A stretch of 51,724 nucleotides of DNA from Thermoplasmata archaeon (GTDB lineage: Archaea; Thermoplasmatota; Penumbrarchaeia; JAEHCK01; GCA-020356005). This document shows, one piece after another, positions 7,616-48,862 of this stretch; within the stretch, counting starts at the first letter, position 1, and every line of letters starts with the position of its first letter. The position numbers and the translations under genes are program-made. Where the stretch lies: assembly GCA_020356005.1 (NCBI GenBank), contig CP070629.1, positions 2,992,765-3,044,488 of the forward strand, in the 5' to 3' direction. The notes below the pieces were generated by a model. That model ran no database searches and had not been told where the DNA came from. It was given only the letters and a program-made list of their open reading frames with translations.

Positions 7616-7704
7616 TTAATGTAATAATCGTTTGATATATTATATTTATTTAGAGTAGAACTAATAAGAAGTGATGTCGAATCTATTAATTTCATAATGA
7701 TTTA

Positions 7705-7850
7705 CTCAGGACCTAGGACTCAGGACTCAGGGTTAGATTCTTTCACTCTTCAACTTTTCCACTATTCCACTATTCCACTTTTCTACTGTACCACTTATCC
7801 ACTAATACTTACACTATCGGCTATCGACTGCCGACCATCGACTTTGGACT
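7705..7850. repeat. Modular intergenic repeat: 7-mer array (ACTCAGG-like), a nearly G-free 8-mer array (CCACTATT-like), and a CTATCGACTGCCGAC module
   Basis: The sequence reads ctcaggacctaggactcaggactcaggg, then ccactattccactattccacttttctactgtaccacttatccactaat, then ctatcggctatcgactgccgaccatcgac. It is the reverse complement of module types seen at 38879-39020 and 40233-40367. Confidence 0.7.
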
Positions 7851-24647: not shown

Positions 24648-24663
24648 GATTTTAATAGATTTT

Positions 24664-24728
24664 TATAAGCTTTTAAATCGCTTACAGAAAAGCGTAGAGC
24701 GGTTGCGTTGGCGAGGTGCGTAACGTCT
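24664..24728. repeat. Copy A (left-arm only) of the palindromic intergenic element family
   Basis: tataagcttttaaatcgcttacagaaaagcgtagagcggttgcgttggcgaggtgcgtaacgtc aligns with the 5' arms at 26526 and 28203. Confidence 0.7.
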
Positions 24729-24729
24729 A

Positions 24730-24885
24730 GCGTTTGCGATGTGCGTCTCGTTGGGCGGGTTCGATGCTCGTTTCGTAAATCGGTATCGAAGCTCGTCTCG
24801 TTGGGCGGACTCGAGGCTCGTCTCGTAAGACGGGTTCGATGCTCGTTTTAACTTTTGCCTTTTGTCTTTTGCCTCTAGCTTCTCC
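24730..24885. repeat. Interleaved direct repeats (CGTCTCGTTGGGCGG x2, GGGTTCGATGCTCGTTT x2) followed by a CTTTTGCC word array
   Basis: The words start at 24744 and 24794, and at 24757 and 24832. They are followed by acttttgccttttgtcttttgcctc. Confidence 0.7.
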
Positions 24886-25756: not shown

Positions 25757-25805
25757 CACCCTAGCGCCTATTCTCTATTCTCTAGCGCCTGATTTCATCG
25801 ATTTC
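25757..25805. repeat. Near-identical copy of the 35139-35187 repeat arm (CTAGCGCC 7-mer words + CCTGAT + ATCGAT)
   Basis: caccctagcgcctattctctattctctagcgcctgatttcatcgatttc compares with gcaccctagcgcctaatctctagtctctagcgcctgattttatcgattc. Confidence 0.8.
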
Positions 25806-34344: not shown

Positions 34345-35031
34345 ATGGAAGGTAGCACCAATTCAAAAAGATGTCAGCCCCCCAAAAGTAATAATGCCAT
34401 ATCCGATAAGAAATCCAAGAAGGCAACTACTAATAAGATCAATAAACCCTCAGTTCAATCATCAATGTCTGTAAATCAGGGCTCGAACCTTGTACCTTCC
34501 CGGATTTTTTTCACCAAAGGCTGCGGTCACCATCGTGAGAAGCTTAACAGCTTTGAATTGGCTTTGCGCAATGCAGGCATTGCGAGGTTTAATCTTGTCA
34601 GGGTATCTTCAATTTTCCCACCGGGCTGTAAAATAATTAAAAGGGACGAAGGATTTGCCGAACTCCAAACCGGCCAAATCGTTCATTGTGTGATAAGTGA
34701 AAACGCCGCCAATGAACCGAACCGGCTAATTGCAGCCTCCATTGGTGTTGCCATCCCTGCAGACCGAACGCACCACGGTTATCTGAGCGAGCATCACTCC
34801 TTCGGTGAGGGAGAGCGGGTGGCAGGTGACTACGCCGAGGATCTGGCTGCTGAAATGCTTGCAACTACAGTTGGAATCGAATTTGACCCCGATACCGGTT
34901 ATGATGAACTGCGCGAGATATACAAAATCGATGGGAGGATAATCAACTCACGCAACATCACCCAATCCGCTGTTTGCGCCAAGGATAAGAAATGGACCAC
35001 GGTACTTGCAGCAGCAGTGTTTTTACCGTAA
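34345..35031 (+). CDS. pdaD: Pyruvoyl-dependent arginine decarboxylase with an N-terminal Lys/Ser/Asn-rich extension
   Basis: The core starts at VPSRIFFTKGCG. The self-processing region is NLVRVSSIFPPGC. The segment VAIPADRTHHGYLSEHH is also present. An alternative internal start is ATG 34465. Confidence 0.88.
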   Translation: MEGSTNSKRCQPPKSNNAISDKKSKKATTNKINKPSVQSSMSVNQGSNLVPSRIFFTKGCGHHREKLNSFELALRNAGIARFNLVRVSSIFPPGCKIIKRDEGFAELQTGQIVHCVISENAANEPNRLIAASIGVAIPADRTHHGYLSEHHSFGEGERVAGDYAEDLAAEMLATTVGIEFDPDTGYDELREIYKIDGRIINSRNITQSAVCAKDKKWTTVLAAAVFLP

Positions 35032-35032
35032 A

Positions 35033-35187
35033 GAGGCGCTAGGCGCTAGAGAGGAGGCGCTAGGGTAATCTCATTCGATTATAGACTCTCTCGAACCTAA
35101 AGACCAATAACATAGAATCCTATTCCATCGATTTAACAGCACCCTAGCGCCTAATCTCTAGTCTCTAGCGCCTGATTTTATCGATTC
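35033..35187. repeat. Inverted 7-mer word arrays (GGCGCTAG-type) flanking an 74-bp spacer
   Basis: The left arm is gaggcgctaggcgctagagaggaggcgctagggt (35033-35066). The right arm is accctagcgcctaatctctagtctctagcgcct (35141-35173), followed by gattttatcgattc. Confidence 0.8.
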
Positions 35188-38878: not shown

Positions 38879-39051
38879 AGTGTAAAAGTATAAAAGTGGA
38901 TGAGTGGAAAAGTTATAGTCGACTCGAAATCTTTTGTTAATCCCTTCGATAGTTGGTAGTCGATAGTACGAGTGTACGAGTGAAACAGTGTAAAAGTGGA
39001 ATTGTGTAAGAGTGGAATTTTGCACTTTTGTACTTTTCTACTCTTTTACTG
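38879..39051. repeat. Modular intergenic repeat: C-poor GTGTAAAAG/GTGGA word arrays, a TAGTCGATAGTACGAGTGTA module, and a complementary G-poor arm
   Basis: The sequence contains agtgtaaaagtataaaagtggatgagtggaaaag, then tagtcgatagtacgagtgtacgagtg, then gtgtaaaagtggaattgtgtaagagtggaatttt, followed by gcacttttgtacttttctactcttttac. Confidence 0.7.
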
Positions 39052-40232: not shown

Positions 40233-40367
40233 TTAGTCGACAGTCGGCAGTCGATAGTCCGAGTGTAATAGTTGAAGGGTGTATGAGTGTATAGGTGTAA
40301 GGGTGTATGAGTGTATAGGTGTAAGGGTGTATTAGTGTATGGGTGTAAGAGTAGAATAGTGTATTAG
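40233..40367. repeat. TAGTCGACAGTCGGCAGTCGATAG module followed by a C-free 8-mer array (GTGTAWRR), including two perfect 24-nt units
   Basis: gggtgtatgagtgtataggtgtaa occurs at 40277-40300 and again at 40301-40324, followed by a degenerate third unit. There is no C between about 40261 and 40374. Confidence 0.85.
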
Positions 40368-40495
40368 TTTTTAACCCTAAGGTGTTTTATTTTATTGAAT
40401 TCTTTGATATGTTACCTGTAGGGTAATAATTATTGTTCTATTAAAATTTGTCTAATCCAGGAGGGTTGGTTATATAAAATCAGGAGGCCCCCCTT

Positions 40496-40741
40496 CGGGA
40501 AAGACGAAGGAGGAAAGGACGATAGACTAGGGGATTATAAACGTCTTTTTTTAAAACGAGATCGGAAAGAAGAGAAGCGAAAAGCCATTCTTCTCTCGTT
40601 TTTCGGTTTGGGTTAGACGAAGAACGAAAAATGAAGTATGAAAATCATCTTTCGTCTCTCCTCTCTCGCACTTCCTCTTTTATCCAATTGTGTTAACGTT
40701 GATAATCCTATCGTCCCTCTTCTCTCGCACTTCGTCTTTCC
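40496..40741. repeat. Large imperfect palindrome with a purine-rich left half and a pyrimidine-rich right half
   Basis: The outer arms are gggaaagacgaaggaggaaaggacgatag (40496-40524) and ctatcgtccctcttctctcgcacttcgtctttccc (40707-40741). The inner segments are gaaagaagagaagcgaaaag and ctttcgtctctcctctctcgcacttcctc. Confidence 0.7.
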
Positions 40742-40786
40742 CGAAATCAATCTAAAATTGATTAAAAAGCTTTATAAATCGCCCAA

Positions 40787-41662: not shown

Positions 41663-41743
41663 GGTATCCCCCTGGCTTTAAATCTAATTTTGCAACGCAT
41701 ACAATATATATAAAATTAACTTGATTGTAGTATAAAGATTTCG

Positions 41744-41829
41744 GAGAGACGAGTAGCGAGTAGCGAGAAGCGAGGGTAATATAGAGTGATGATATCAGGT
41801 TCTAGGTTCTGGGTTCTGGGTTCCAGGGA
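41744..41829. repeat. 7-mer word arrays: CGAGTAG-type followed by ATCAGG + GTTCTRG-type
   Basis: The sequence reads gagagacgagtagcgagtagcgagaagcgaggg ... atcaggttctaggttctgggttctgggttccaggg. Confidence 0.8.
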
Positions 41830-41987
41830 CTATACTTTTAGCAATGTCACTATGTTGGAAAAGGACCTCAAGATTTAAATACCAATTTCTAGCCAGACTT
41901 TCTAGTTTTTTGGACTATAAATTATCAATATTCAGAGTGCATTATCAACTTCTATCTTATTGAGAAGCCTAAGATAGAGGTGGTAAA

Positions 41988-45469: not shown

Positions 45470-46051
45470 ATGGCTGTTGAATCCGCTTCTTTGGAACATA
45501 AGACGCGTAAGCAAATCTACAATTATATTTATTCAAATCCAGGCGTACCGTTCAAAATCATCATGAATTTTCTCAGTTTAAATAAATCCACGTTGACCTA
45601 CCACCTGAAGTATCTAGAAAAATCAAATCAAATAACTTCTAAAAGGGAGGGTCGTCAACGGCATTATTTCTGCAATCAACAACCTTCAATTGAATCTAAA
45701 AATCAGCTACCGATAATGGAGAATACGTTGAACAAAAACCAACAAAAAATTCTTGATTTAGTAAAGAACCAGCCGGGGATCTCTGTAAAAGACCTGAATT
45801 TTAGAACCAGAATAAATCAAAGCACAATAGAATATAATTTAAATCGATTAATAGAATTAAAATTAATCTGGAAAGTGAAAACGGATAACGGGATAGGGTA
45901 TGAATATATAACGAAAGATATACTACGAAAAGAAATGTTTAATCGATTATTAAAGAAATTACTAACCAACGAGATCGACGAGGAGACGTATCATCGGATA
46001 CGGAGGAAACTGGAGGATTTGGATTTGGAGGAGCTGGAACCGAGGCAATAA
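45470..46051 (+). CDS. Transcriptional regulator with two winged-helix (ArsR-like) domains
   Basis: wHTH 1 is RKQIYNYIYSNPGVPFKIIMNFLSLNKSTLTYHLKYLEKSNQITSKREGRQRHYF. wHTH 2 is QQKILDLVKNQPGISVKDLNFRTRINQSTIEYNLNRLIELKLIWKV. Confidence 0.7.
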   Translation: MAVESASLEHKTRKQIYNYIYSNPGVPFKIIMNFLSLNKSTLTYHLKYLEKSNQITSKREGRQRHYFCNQQPSIESKNQLPIMENTLNKNQQKILDLVKNQPGISVKDLNFRTRINQSTIEYNLNRLIELKLIWKVKTDNGIGYEYITKDILRKEMFNRLLKKLLTNEIDEETYHRIRRKLEDLDLEELEPRQ

Positions 46052-46053
46052 AA

Positions 46054-46088
46054 TCAGGTTCTGGGTTCTAGGTTCTGGGTTCTAGGGG
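46054..46088. repeat. ATCAGG + GTTCTRG 7-mer array (same family as 41806-41829)
   Basis: The sequence is caggttctgggttctaggttctgggttctaggggg, immediately after the stop of the wHTH gene. Confidence 0.8.
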
Positions 46089-46504
46089 GCATTAATTGTA
46101 ATTAAACTTTGTTTTATAACAAATTGTCAATAAAAATTAGTTTTAAATATACATAAGTACGTAACCCCCTTACAAATGCTCTAAATTTGATTAGGGGACC
46201 CAAGAAACGTACTTTTATTGAAAAGAGCGATTGCCGAATATGATTGGTTCACAGTGCGAGGCTTAATCAGGGCGAAAGATTATTCGATGCAGAACCGGGA
46301 ATTCAACGTAGAGAGGGCAAGCAACGGTTTATCTGATCAAATATTGAATCATCCGAGATTGAGATGATGAGCAGAAAAGCGAATATTTACCTGGCAATAT
46401 AAAGGGGGTGAGAACAAGCTGGTTAATAAAATCGAGAAGAGAGTGTATTTAGAATATGAATAATTATAAAAAGAAATGAAAATAAGAATAGAGGAGGAGA
46501 ATTT

Positions 46505-47292: not shown

Positions 47293-47430
47293 GAGAGACG
47301 AGGGACGAGTAGCGAGTAGCGAAGGCTGACGCCTAGCAATGAGCAGTGAGTGTTGCGCACGGCTGCTTCGCAACCTTGAGTAGTGAGAACATTCGGGGCT
47401 GGGGCCTCGGGCCTGGGGGCTGGGGCCGCC
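47293..47430. repeat. Word arrays: CGAGTAG-type, GAGYAGTGAG-type and GGGGCTGGGGCC-type
   Basis: The sequence reads gagagacgagggacgagtagcgagtagcgaagg ... gagcagtgagtg ... gagtagtgagaac ... ggggctggggcctcgggcctgggggctggggcc. Confidence 0.75.
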
Positions 47431-47667
47431 CGTCCCCCTTTTTCTTTTTTTGATTTTTTATGCTCAATAATTGCTTATAGCGGTATAGCTCACATTGATT
47501 GTCCGGGAGGGGCGTACCGTCTTAGGTCCGGTGTTAAACGACCGTAAGATTCACTTAATATTTTAAGAAAATAAGGGAAATATATAAATATATTGAATCC
47601 CATAAATAGGATACACGTCCCAGATGTAGGACCGGTGTCCCGAATGTAGGATTTGACAAGGTGAAAT

Positions 47668-48261
47668 ATGAAAATAAATAATATTTTGGATAGCACCCTG
47701 GATTCGAAGGCCAAGATCAGGATTTTAAGGACTTTATTCAAGCATCCAGATAGGGAATTCACTGAAAGAGAAATCGCTAACATAATCAATATGAGTCCGA
47801 ATACTGTAAATCTGGCTTTGAAAAATTTAAGAAAGACGAATGTATTTACATACAAAAGGATAGGAGGAACTCATTCCTATAAATGCAATAAAGATTCCGT
47901 TTTATTTAATTTATTTTCAGATATCTTTAAAAAGGAATCACAGATTAGAAAAACTTTATTTGAGACTCTTAAGAAAGATTTTGAATCTATTGGCTCTTGC
48001 GTGATTTATGGGAGCTATGCCAAAGGGGAAGAGGAATTTGACAGCGATCTCGATATAATGGTCATTGCAAAGAATAAAAAGAAAGCAGAGGAAAAAGCCA
48101 ACAAAGCTGCCGATTTAATTCTGAAAAGATATTCAATTGTTTTATCCCCCATTATTTTAACACCTAAAGAATTTAAATTAAAATCAAAAAAGCCGTTCAT
48201 AAAAGAAGCCCTCGAACATGGAATTGTTATTTCTGGAAAAGAATTGGATGTATATCTATAG
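47668..48261 (+). CDS. wHTH + minimal nucleotidyltransferase (MNT) protein, the antitoxin-type partner of HEPN
   Basis: The N-terminal wHTH is KIRILRTLFKHPDREFTEREIANIINMSPNTVNLALKNLRK. The NTase motif is GSYAKGEEEFDSDLDIMVI. Confidence 0.85.
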   Translation: MKINNILDSTLDSKAKIRILRTLFKHPDREFTEREIANIINMSPNTVNLALKNLRKTNVFTYKRIGGTHSYKCNKDSVLFNLFSDIFKKESQIRKTLFETLKKDFESIGSCVIYGSYAKGEEEFDSDLDIMVIAKNKKKAEEKANKAADLILKRYSIVLSPIILTPKEFKLKSKKPFIKEALEHGIVISGKELDVYL

Positions 48262-48270
48262 AGGTCTGAT

Positions 48271-48678
48271 ATGTGCCCTTCGATATCTACCAGAAGTGTC
48301 AACAGGTCATATTATAAAAATTACCTGCTCAAAGCGGAGCAATTTTACAAAACGATGAAATTAAGTTATGAGAAAAAACTCTGGAATTCTGTTGTTGTTA
48401 ATGCCATACATTGTGCTATTTCCAGTGCTGATGCTCTCACTGTATACTATCTCGGTTTCAGGCATGCAGGTGAGAGACATAACGATGTAATTCAGTTACT
48501 TCAACAGCTCGAAATTGATAAAAAAGAGTTAAGAACAAAAACCAGGCAGTTGTCAATGTTGTTATCAATAAAAAATCAAGCGGAGTATGAAGAGAGACTG
48601 ATGGTAGAATCGGATGCAAATTCAGCTTTAAAAGGCAGTGAGAGGTTTTACAGCTGGGTCAAAGAGGAATTGGAATAG
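48271..48678 (+). CDS. HEPN-domain protein (toxin-type partner of MNT)
   Basis: It starts 9 nt after the MNT gene. It is all-helical and has an Rx4-6H motif in GFRHAGERHNDV. The 135-aa size is typical. Confidence 0.8.
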   Translation: MCPSISTRSVNRSYYKNYLLKAEQFYKTMKLSYEKKLWNSVVVNAIHCAISSADALTVYYLGFRHAGERHNDVIQLLQQLEIDKKELRTKTRQLSMLLSIKNQAEYEERLMVESDANSALKGSERFYSWVKEELE

Positions 48679-48780
48679 ATCAGAGGTCCGCTATATGAGG
48701 GATTAAAAAAGTGGTGAATGGTGAGAACACTCATTCACTTCGTTCATTCGTTTGAATGGTGAGTCCACCCCCAGCCCCCC

Positions 48781-48806
48781 TTTTTTCTTTTTTTTATATT
48801 TTTTTG
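48781..48806 (+). terminator. Long T-rich tract after the HEPN gene
   Basis: ttttttcttttttttatattttttt is preceded by the C-run ccccagcccccc. It lies about 100 nt downstream of the stop. Confidence 0.35.
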
Positions 48807-48862
48807 TTCAATATATTTTGACGATCATACCACAATTGTGTTATATATCCACATAAATTATT

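Follow-up and report, generated by a model that had tools for sequence, protein, structure and literature searches.

Dispersed heptamer-word modules with polar boundary words accumulate behind stop codons in a Thermoplasmata archaeon

Intergenic heptamer repeats of bacteria, such as the short tandemly repeated repetitive (STRR) sequences, GGGAATC and TAACTGA, have been noted for decades without an established mechanism or function. Xanthomonas repeats the word GGGAATC and Nostoc the word GGGGA(T/C)T (Rehm et al. 2015, PMC4692102), in a paper that also cites the STRR of Calothrix. TAACTGA is repeated in Beggiatoaceae, Cyanobacteria and Bacteroidetes, and its sharing across phyla was noted with the remark 'but no mechanism is evident' (MacGregor 2015, PMC4679880). 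Here we describe arrays of this class, with an unusually clean grammar, in a stretch of 51,724 nucleotides (the window; positions 2992765–3044488 of contig CP070629.1) from a Thermoplasmata archaeon, whose genome is a single 3.58-Mb contig of 42.6% GC with about 35.7 kb masked as N. The focal locus, 41737–41829 of the window, lies between divergent genes and holds two such arrays, one of CGAGTAG-type words (module A) and one in which the word ATCAGG opens a series of TTCTRGG words (module B). On balance, we lean towards reading these arrays as dispersed, recombining non-coding modules, selfish or domesticated, that belong to the heptamer-repeat class, lead a life like that of repetitive extragenic palindromes (REP) and bacterial interspersed mosaic elements (BIME), and would depend on PF05635 proteins in trans.

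The two arrays of the focal locus are separate units. Comparison of the spacer 41663–41987 with the genome by blastn gave two sharp-ended blocks, 41732–41774 in about 24 copies and 41793–41830 in about 14 copies, and no similarity to the genome between or outside them. Since the blocks are separate and sharp-ended, the locus consists of two independent modules of 35–45 nt each that are neighbours by chance. Both belong to a large class. Seven is the commonest tandem-repeat period of the genome, with 784 of the 3679 rows of Tandem Repeats Finder (TRF) and 203 canonical units, among which GTTCTAG (= AACCTAG, 35 arrays) and CGAGTAG (= ACTCGCT, 31 arrays) rank third and fourth. Period-7 arrays are 89% intergenic, compared with 24% of the DNA being non-coding, a split that rests on crude open reading frame (ORF) calls. 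Within the window, 14 period-7 arrays were counted against 0–4 across 20 dinucleotide-preserving shuffles, TRF itself calling 41750–41774, 41797–41827, 46057–46083, 47306–47322, 11689–11707, 25768–25784 and 35034–35049; ATCAGG occurs 45 times where 27.8 ± 5.3 are expected. Iteration of the unit is near-perfect in the TTCTRGG and CGAGTAG arrays (87–94% matches by TRF), and copy numbers drop sharply above five. A clustered regularly interspaced short palindromic repeat (CRISPR) array was ruled out, the units being 7 nt long and contiguous rather than repeats of 24–48 nt with unique spacers of similar length. The arrays are thus, as a preliminary description of this DNA had proposed, a recurrent and non-random class with a strict 7-nt register and a constant, polar boundary word.

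The polarity of that word is clear from the genome as a whole. ATCAGG is the first unit of 56 of the 390 arrays with three or more N4RGG words, and 56 of its 58 occurrences are at position 0, which makes it a polar opening word. A wider pattern gathers 108 ATCAGG-led arms, built from a leader (T)AGCTGAGAaATCGATnnA, the boundary word, usually four heptamers, and a linker GTGATTttAATCGATTA. Their words fall into five main vocabularies: CGCTAGA GAnnAGA GAnnAGG CGCTAGG; TTCTRGG; ACCCAGG/ACTCAGG; AGGCAGG; and GATTGGG. For instance, 18 of the 46 TTCNRGG arrays of the genome are preceded by ATCAGG. The CGCTAG arm is a fixed series of different words, and 104 copies of its 34 nt were found within 10 mismatches, the reversed control sequence giving none. 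Positions 4–12 and 25–34 of this arm are conserved at 91–100%, and positions 16, 17, 23 and 24 are near saturation. Either the scaffold is constrained or homogenised, or the inner positions are hypervariable; neutral decay cannot yield both patterns. Exactly four words are present in 36 of 38 CGCTAG arms, and this fixed length, together with the drop above five copies, sets the arms apart from slippage-driven microsatellites.

The arms had been described as often lying next to ATCGAT. Exact ATCGAT is found at −9 to −4 in 11 of the 108 arms, and about 31 more carry a one-mismatch variant there (ATCAAT, AGCGAT, GGCGAT, ATCTAT, ATTGAT or ATCGAA), so that the neighbourhood holds as a degenerate leader or linker and not as a fixed site. 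ATCGAT as an intergenic-specific signal was discarded; it is common in both compartments, at 0.82 per kb of intergenic and 0.67 per kb of coding DNA. GTGATT directly follows 27 arms, and a short linker running from GTGATT to ATCGAT is frequent. A post-arm linker seen throughout the genome, GGTGATTATAATCGATTATAATCACC, is a palindrome centred on ATCGAT; its ends, GGTGAT and ATCACC, match what we take to be the Shine-Dalgarno and anti-Shine-Dalgarno core of archaeal 16S rRNA.

CGAGNNG arrays of at least three words number 69 in the genome, 65 of them intergenic. They contain three to five words and often run on into CGAGACG and ACGGTACGC-type words. A boundary ATCAGG had been ascribed to both array types, but the CGAGTAG type opens with GATTTCGGAGAGA or CCCTTCGGGAGAG instead. 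The individual arrays reported at the outset are all present, displaced by up to about 12 nt. On the minus strand the words read as quoted at 11704–11709 and 25788–25793, and the copy at 35176 has GACTAGA GATTAGG, not GAATAGA GAATAGG. The three CGAGTAG arrays placed at 11533, 41744 and 47293 exist (11539–11552, 41750–41776 and 47299–47325), the first with two words only.

The placement of the modules relative to genes is strongly asymmetric. Upstream of 101 intergenic ATCAGG arms, on the same strand, the neighbour is a gene 3′ end in 71 and a 5′ end in 30; in co-directional (tandem) spacers the ratio is 36:17. Convergent and divergent spacers hold 35 and 13 arms, respectively, although divergent spacers hold more DNA. 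In 58 of the 101 the arm starts no more than 37 nt from the stop codon. The stop abuts or overlaps ATCAGG itself in 20 arms (TA/ATCAGG, TAA/ATCAGG or TAAa/ATCAGG, the slash marking the junction), and in the rest it abuts or lies inside a leader of about 19 nt. By inspection this leader, TAGCTGAGAaATCGATATA/A (read as TAGCTGAGAAATCGATATA/A), contains TAG, TGA and TAA in three different frames; an ORF that enters the element is therefore closed within about 20 nt. When every period-7 array is counted, 3′ ends have 180 within 40 nt and 5′ ends have 25; of those near 3′ ends, 106 are G-rich and 37 C-rich on the sense strand. In Xanthomonas the GGGAATC repeats are placed with the same asymmetry, the mean distance being 28 nt to the ORF upstream and 160 nt to the ORF downstream (Rehm et al. 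2015, PMC4692102). The early observation that the arrays lie at gene ends or between divergent genes is thereby borne out, and the focal 41794 arm is among the minority between divergent genes. Repeat elements may supply gene 3′ ends and stop codons in such genomes, a caution for annotation.

Folding does not account for the arms in general. A hairpin model with ATCAGG...CCTGAT as stem bases was rejected, since a complementary partner lies within 450 nt in only 13–18 of 82 arms. Most arms are solo and about 15–20% have a complementary partner; module B has none within 450 nt. Commoner layouts are two arms of different vocabularies that face each other over a palindromic linker, or an arm followed by an unrelated array. 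The hairpin 35028–35065/35143–35176 folds strongly (−62 kcal/mol, z −7.7); no significant fold was found on either strand of the focal locus (z +1.4 and +0.5) or for the 46045–46100 arm (z −0.8). In 145 co-directional array spacers it is the antisense strand that folds better, by a mean of +2.2 kcal/mol (p = 0.03), and minimum free energies per nt are much like those of 351 array-free spacers. The idea that an RNA hairpin is selected for was discarded, the sense strand having no folding advantage. A polarity of UUCG tetraloops was likewise set aside, as the CCTTCGGG punctuation has no orientation bias relative to genes. ATCAGG with four N4RGG words amounts, as sequence potential, to five GG/GGG tracts spaced 7 nt with loops of 4–5 nt. 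An intrinsic oligo-T terminator would need a T-run, and none comes after the arms at 41828 or 46087; the region has 7 terminator-like sites where 4.4 ± 2.2 are expected, and Rfam gave no match in the window at gathering thresholds. The arrays are, as first supposed, neither promoters nor classical terminators.

The system extends beyond this genome. ATCAGG with three N4RGG words behind it was counted 34 times in this genome and 0–4 times in relatives, the convincing cases coming from two genomes of the same order; these have the pattern at low copy and use other words, and one array again lies just past a stop codon. The pattern ATCAGGTTCTRGGTTCTRGG, namely ATCAGG(TTCTRGG)n, was found in 34 metagenome contigs of 34–70% GC, a count of matches and not a rate. 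These arrays usually contain more words than the pattern requires, and many serve as the leading arm of a hairpin. In 21 of 35 occurrences the 80 nt upstream include the end of an ORF on the same strand, and 11 of those ORFs end within 20 nt. The upstream ORFs include NtrC, bacterial-type uS19 and uL6, GapR and SufS; given these bacterial-type ORFs, the metagenome hosts are bacteria of several lineages. The internal grammar appears to be under a sequence-specific constraint that is independent of host base composition. In metagenome Ga0170475 and a related one (L027, L031, L040, L056), the spacers after uS19, uS11 and uL6 in bacterial ribosomal-protein operons share one element, ATGAAAnnTTTCACATTTC-ATCAGG-TTCTAGG TTCTAGG TTnnAGG TTCTAGT ... 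followed by TATCACC word arrays, that starts 18–20 nt past the stop.

A pair of metagenome contigs offers a view of change between strains. The segments L041:2000–2300 (−) and L043:1455–1780 (+) have almost identical flanks, and all but a handful of their differences fall inside an ATCAGG-TTCTRGG hairpin: an indel of 21 nt, that is three words, and a cluster of six substitutions. When parsed by hand, the inner words of the right arm in one strain are the reverse complement of the left-arm words in the other, so the substitution cluster is what an inversion of the inner words of the hairpin would give. From this comparison, arrays are altered in units of whole words or by inversion from one arm to the other, at a pace well above that of the flanks, and behave like small invertible or recombining segments. 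In this contig, which is unrelated and of 54% GC, GAGTAGCGA-like words lie upstream of the ATCAGG-TTCTRGG arm, a single case suggesting a mirror of the two-module pairing of the focal locus.

A protein partner that reads the sequence is likely. The best candidate is the four-helix-bundle family PF05635 ('23S rRNA intervening sequence protein', Avd-like), since the genes of this family are themselves enclosed by arrays of this type. Six PF05635 genes occur in the genome, and each of the five whose flanks can be read is bracketed by inverted word arrays. In a score of inverted-repeat flanks they rank 1, 2, 3, 8 and about 20 among 1011 short genes. Among 41 genomes, PF05635 is found in this one (6), in three of the same order (3, 17 and 22) and in one other (2), and is absent from 36, a distribution that agrees with that of the ATCAGG arrays. 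In the relatives, 25 of 37 cassettes exceed the 95th percentile of the own-genome control; each PF05635 gene has its own vocabulary there, and the flanking arrays have period 7 in 47 of 85. The words around four of the present genes (AATACTACC at two, AAGCACT/AAATTCT, GGGATTA) are also abundant as arrays without a gene. The sole direct thread to the focal families is that the ACGGTACGC-type words into which CGAGNNG arrays often continue also make up the arms of a PF05635 cassette, the one at genome position 34960. The closest solved structures to the PF05635 proteins are 2GSC (Xanthomonas XCC0516) and 2RLD, with five chains each.

Some further observations touch these cassettes. In the same-order genomes G002 and G003, which hold 17 and 22 PF05635 genes (L066–L100), nearly all are bracketed by inverted arrays of a private word (TAGTTGC, GAGTCTA, GGGATGT, AGGCACA, CGGGAGT, TAGAGAT, GGCGAAA and others), as a rule with a G-rich arm upstream and a C-rich one downstream. 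At 24660–24846 the window contains a 25/50-nt periodic array of CGTCTCG/ACG-type words with AAATCGCTTACAGAAAAGCG in front, which resembles the upstream arm of the 34960 cassette and, judged from its words, is probably a gene-less relative of that cassette. No PF05635 gene was detected near the ATCAGG-TTCTRGG arrays in the 34 metagenome loci by a local hidden Markov model search (E ≤ 0.01), a weak test with loci so short.

With these data in place, the reading as dispersed modules can be set out. The focal locus represents two separate copies from a genome-wide 'word' repeat system that expanded in this lineage. Each module consists of a fixed polar opening word, (A)ATCAGG or GATTTCGGAGAGA, then three to five family-specific heptamers and often a short linker. 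Modules would be copied to many sites and joined in shifting combinations, sometimes as inverted pairs that can form hairpins. They gather immediately past stop codons, the G-rich strand in sense, where the three-frame stops of the leader make an insertion at the extreme 3′ end of a gene harmless. PF05635 four-helix-bundle proteins, which presumably form rings, are the candidate partners that might bind and service the modules in trans. Dispersal, modularity, polarity, the position at stops, the uneven conservation, the rearrangement by words between strains and the co-occurrence with PF05635 are observed; mobility, its route and the role of PF05635 proteins are inferred. Several observations count against this proposal. 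The strong sense polarity immediately after stops could equally indicate a function at the RNA level. No arm bounded by ATCAGG/CCTGAT and no TTCTRGG or CGAGTAG arm was found at any PF05635 cassette of this genome or at the 37 of the relatives; PF05635 is linked to the ATCAGG family only by class and by co-occurrence, the latter seen in a single clade. Outside the N-masked part of this genome, the arrays have neither an empty site nor a target-site duplication, and no transposase goes with them. A retro-element origin was rejected, no RVT_1 (reverse transcriptase) match being present in the genome outside the masked stretches, and so was a RAYT-like partner (REP-associated tyrosine transposase), since word arrays of these families are missing around the single IS200-type Y1 transposase (PF01797). 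Searches of the 40 relatives, GTDB species genomes and JGI metagenome contigs turned up no CGCTAG arm. In viral contigs, 0 of 19 TTCTRGG arrays carry ATCAGG, which rules out ATCAGG as a universal boundary word. A rule of 'five words = pentamer' is not supported either, the arrays flanking cassettes having a median of 2.9 copies with a broad spread. The bolder version, that the heptamers are a protein-read code, each subunit of a PF05635 ring or of another oligomer binding a single word of a roughly five-word arm and the oligomer copying or recombining such arms, is speculative and we give it little credence. If it were true, ATCAGG(N4RGG)4-type modules would be a cross-domain family, of Archaea and several bacterial phyla, that is serviced by a protein and homes to the first bases past stop codons, and the long-known excess of intergenic heptamer repeats would have a mechanism.

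Empty sites within the genome were also sought by self-megablast; the long dispersed repeats it returned are genes or insertion sequence (IS)-like sequences beside masked stretches, not word modules. The masked stretches adjoin the IS200-type transposase (308643–308742) and several dispersed repeats of 200–800 nt, and may hide mobile-element genes.

The main rival is that the arrays are transcribed elements of 3′ untranslated regions that act as RNA, as two-tetrad G-quadruplexes or sites of an RNA-binding protein, in protecting mRNA 3′ ends, in termination or in ribosome release. Such a role would explain the 71:30 sense polarity, the tight position after stops, the excess of G-rich sense strands (106 against 37) and the five regularly spaced G-tracts, and it has a precedent in the Xanthomonas GGGAATC repeats, which fold into G-quadruplexes about 28 nt behind the upstream ORF (PMC4692102); some arm pairs also form very stable hairpins. 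Array spacers, however, fold no better on the sense strand and have about the same free energy per nt as array-free spacers, neither the focal locus nor the 46045–46100 arm has significant structure, and 30% of the arms, the focal one included, are antisense or in divergent spacers. Moreover, the abundant CGAGTAG, ACTATCG, AAGCACT and AATACTACC families have no G-tracts, no oligo-T follows the arms, and no Rfam family matched. Polarity and position thus speak for a function in the RNA, and the folding tests, the families that are not G-rich and the antisense or promoter-side copies weaken it to the point that we hold it to be unlikely.

Other explanations are more remote. The arrays could be operator- or iteron-like sites through which host transcription factors control the flanking genes, such as the neighbouring winged helix-turn-helix (wHTH) or Lrp-type regulators to which the preliminary description had pointed. 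Direct repeats of AGGCGCTAG stand 21 bp apart, or two helical turns, and are highly conserved in the CGCTAG arm; the genes on either side of the focal arrays diverge, and the 46053 arm has a double-wHTH gene next to it. Nevertheless, the modules occur genome-wide in more than 100 copies behind unrelated genes, with 180 arrays near 3′ and 25 near 5′ ends, the focal arrays are at least about 100 nt from the TATA-like AT-rich stretches that can be seen by eye before both flanking genes, and the same boundary and word stand behind bacterial genes in unrelated phyla. We have therefore dropped the pointer to the local regulators, and regard control of flanking genes as quite improbable. Replication slippage could alternatively have made neutral simple sequence repeats (SSRs) in place, each locus arising without a copy from another. 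An excess of heptamer SSRs is known from many prokaryotes, and slippage has been proposed for it in work cited in PMC4692102; some metagenome contigs have long, pure runs of (TTCTAGG)n, and the two strains differ by an indel of three words. Slippage does not predict arms of constant length (36 of 38 with four words), boundaries and leaders that are conserved but not repetitive, 104 near-identical copies or a sharp drop above five copies, and is largely refuted already by the fixed heterogeneous order CGCTAGA GAATAGA GAATAGG CGCTAGG; the chance that it is the explanation is very slim. An assembly or vector artefact, or confinement to the window, was what the preliminary description had said would undo its claim. 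The 108 ATCAGG arms and 69 CGAGNNG arrays of the genome exclude confinement, and hundreds of copies with individual variants between intact genes on one contig, together with related arrays in independent assemblies, leave an artefact practically negligible. The reading as dispersed, recombining modules is the one we retain, and the concrete 35-nt arm sequences and the six PF05635 genes are candidates for work on binding and mobility.

The features of the window are collected in Table 1. Besides these, the pair of genes resembling a MNT/HEPN toxin-antitoxin system (wHTH-nucleotidyltransferase, 47668–48261; second gene, 48271–48678) has C-run/T-run tails on both sides, the left flank being a G-rich word array with its tail (47394–47470) and the right a second, similar tail (48760–48810). 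It may be a word-bracketed cassette that carries a cargo other than a PF05635 gene. Octamer arrays with period 8, 16 or 24 occur at 40261–40368, 38946–39050 and 7744–7804 (GTGTATGA/GGTGTAAG, GTGTAAGAGTGGAATT and CACTATTC), and 287 of 370 period-8 arrays of the genome are intergenic. Between the gene of the TATA-binding protein and that of a zinc-ribbon membrane protein, 40479–40747 is a palindrome of about 250 bp with a purine and a pyrimidine arm (aaaATCAGGAGGCCCCCCTTCGGGAAAGACGAAGG...), opened by ATCAGG.

Table 1. Word modules and arrays in the window (positions of the window; words on the minus strand are given as read on that strand).
Feature	Position	Strand	Remarks
Module A, boundary word GATTTCGGAGAGA	41737–41749	+	GATTTCGGAGAGA or CCCTTCGGGAGAG opens most of the 69 CGAGNNG arrays in the genome
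Module A, words CGAGTAG CGAGTAG CGAGAAG CGAGGG	41750–41776	+	TRF period 7, 3.6 copies; about 24 blastn copies of the 40-nt module
Linker between modules A and B, 17 nt	41777–41793	+	single-copy; blastn coverage about 1
Module B: ATCAGG (41794–41799) + TTCTAGG TTCTGGG TTCTGGG TTCCAGG (41800–41827)	41794–41827	+	solo arm, divergent genes on either side
ATCAGG (46053–46058) + TTCTGGG TTCTAGG TTCTGGG TTCTAGG (46059–46086)	46053–46086	+	1 nt past TAA (46049–46051) of double-wHTH gene
Short arm ATCAGG (11512–11517) + ACCCAGG ACC	11512–11527	+	1 nt past TAG of GT2 gene; left arm of inverted pair
GAGAGG + CGAGTAG CGAGAAA, two-word CGAGNNG module (words 11539–11552)	11533–11552	+	read from the sequence
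ATCAGG (11704–11709) + ACCCAGG GCCCAGG GGACTCAGG	11677–11709	-	inverted partner of 11512–11527; genome coordinate 3004473
ATCAGG (25788–25793) CGCTAGA GAATAGA GAATAGG CGCTAGG	25760–25793	-	leader AGAAATCGATGAA abuts TAG of FtsX-like gene; one of 104 copies of the 34-nt arm
AAGAGG-led CGCTAGG arm	35028–35065	+	overlaps TAA of arginine decarboxylase gene; left arm of true hairpin
ATCAGG (35171–35176) CGCTAGA GACTAGA GATTAGG CGCTAGG	35143–35176	-	right arm, hairpin with 35028–35065
GAGAGA + CGAGGGA CGAGTAG CGAGTAG CGAAGG module (array 47299–47325)	47293–47325	+	TRF and sequence reading
GGGSCTG heptamer array, then C-run/T-run terminator-like tail	47394–47427	+	TRF and terminator scan
ACTCAGG ACCTAGG ACTCAGG ACTCAGG, ACCCAGG family without ATCAGG	7704–7731	+	TRF

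The modules can be compared with several described systems. REP and BIME elements have units of about 35 nt in hundreds of copies, which lie after gene 3′ ends in alternating orientations with short conserved linkers. The present modules share all of these features. Unlike REPs, they have an internal 7-nt periodicity, and most arms are non-palindromic and without a partner, so that few would count as inverted doublets. As here, a small protein gene in REP/BIME-RAYT systems is flanked by the repeats that it would service, and Bertels and Rainey reportedly described such REPIN-RAYT systems (REPIN, hairpin-forming REP doublet) of proteobacteria in 2011; here, the one Y1 transposase gene is not linked to the arrays. 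A further comparison is with the PF05635 cassettes, which may themselves be compared with the ORF-bearing intervening sequences of 23S rRNA. They have arms of heptamer to nonamer words and co-occur with word arrays in the same archaeal order, whereas the focal arms are solo and enclose nothing. Miniature inverted-repeat transposable elements are also small, non-coding, dispersed and near genes, but the ends of the modules have no terminal inverted repeats or target-site duplication, no parent IS is seen, and units of 35–45 nt recombine as modules.

The heptameric SSR/STRR class, already known and unexplained, is the nearest relative. Common to both are tandem 7-nt units that are about 90% intergenic and occupy many loci per genome, a position nearer the end of the upstream ORF than the next gene (the Xanthomonas average of 28 nt compares with 58 of 101 arms at no more than 37 nt here), and the presence of the same word in distant phyla with no known mechanism of transfer and no established function. 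Even the words are related: the GGGATTA/GATTGGG family is almost the Nostoc/Xanthomonas word, and (A)ATCRGG is a relative of GGGAATC at the level of rotation. In contrast to STRR, a single genome here uses dozens of vocabularies rather than a dominant word; each short arm has a set length, opens with a polar boundary word and runs through non-identical words in a constant order; and modules are concatenated into mosaics. What this genome adds to the class is an archaeal host, an explicit grammar (boundary words with polarity, arms set at four words, and a scaffold that is conserved around saturated inner positions), an anchoring at stop codons with a leader that holds stops in three frames, and a module, ATCAGG(TTCTRGG)n, that is also found behind the genes of bacteria.

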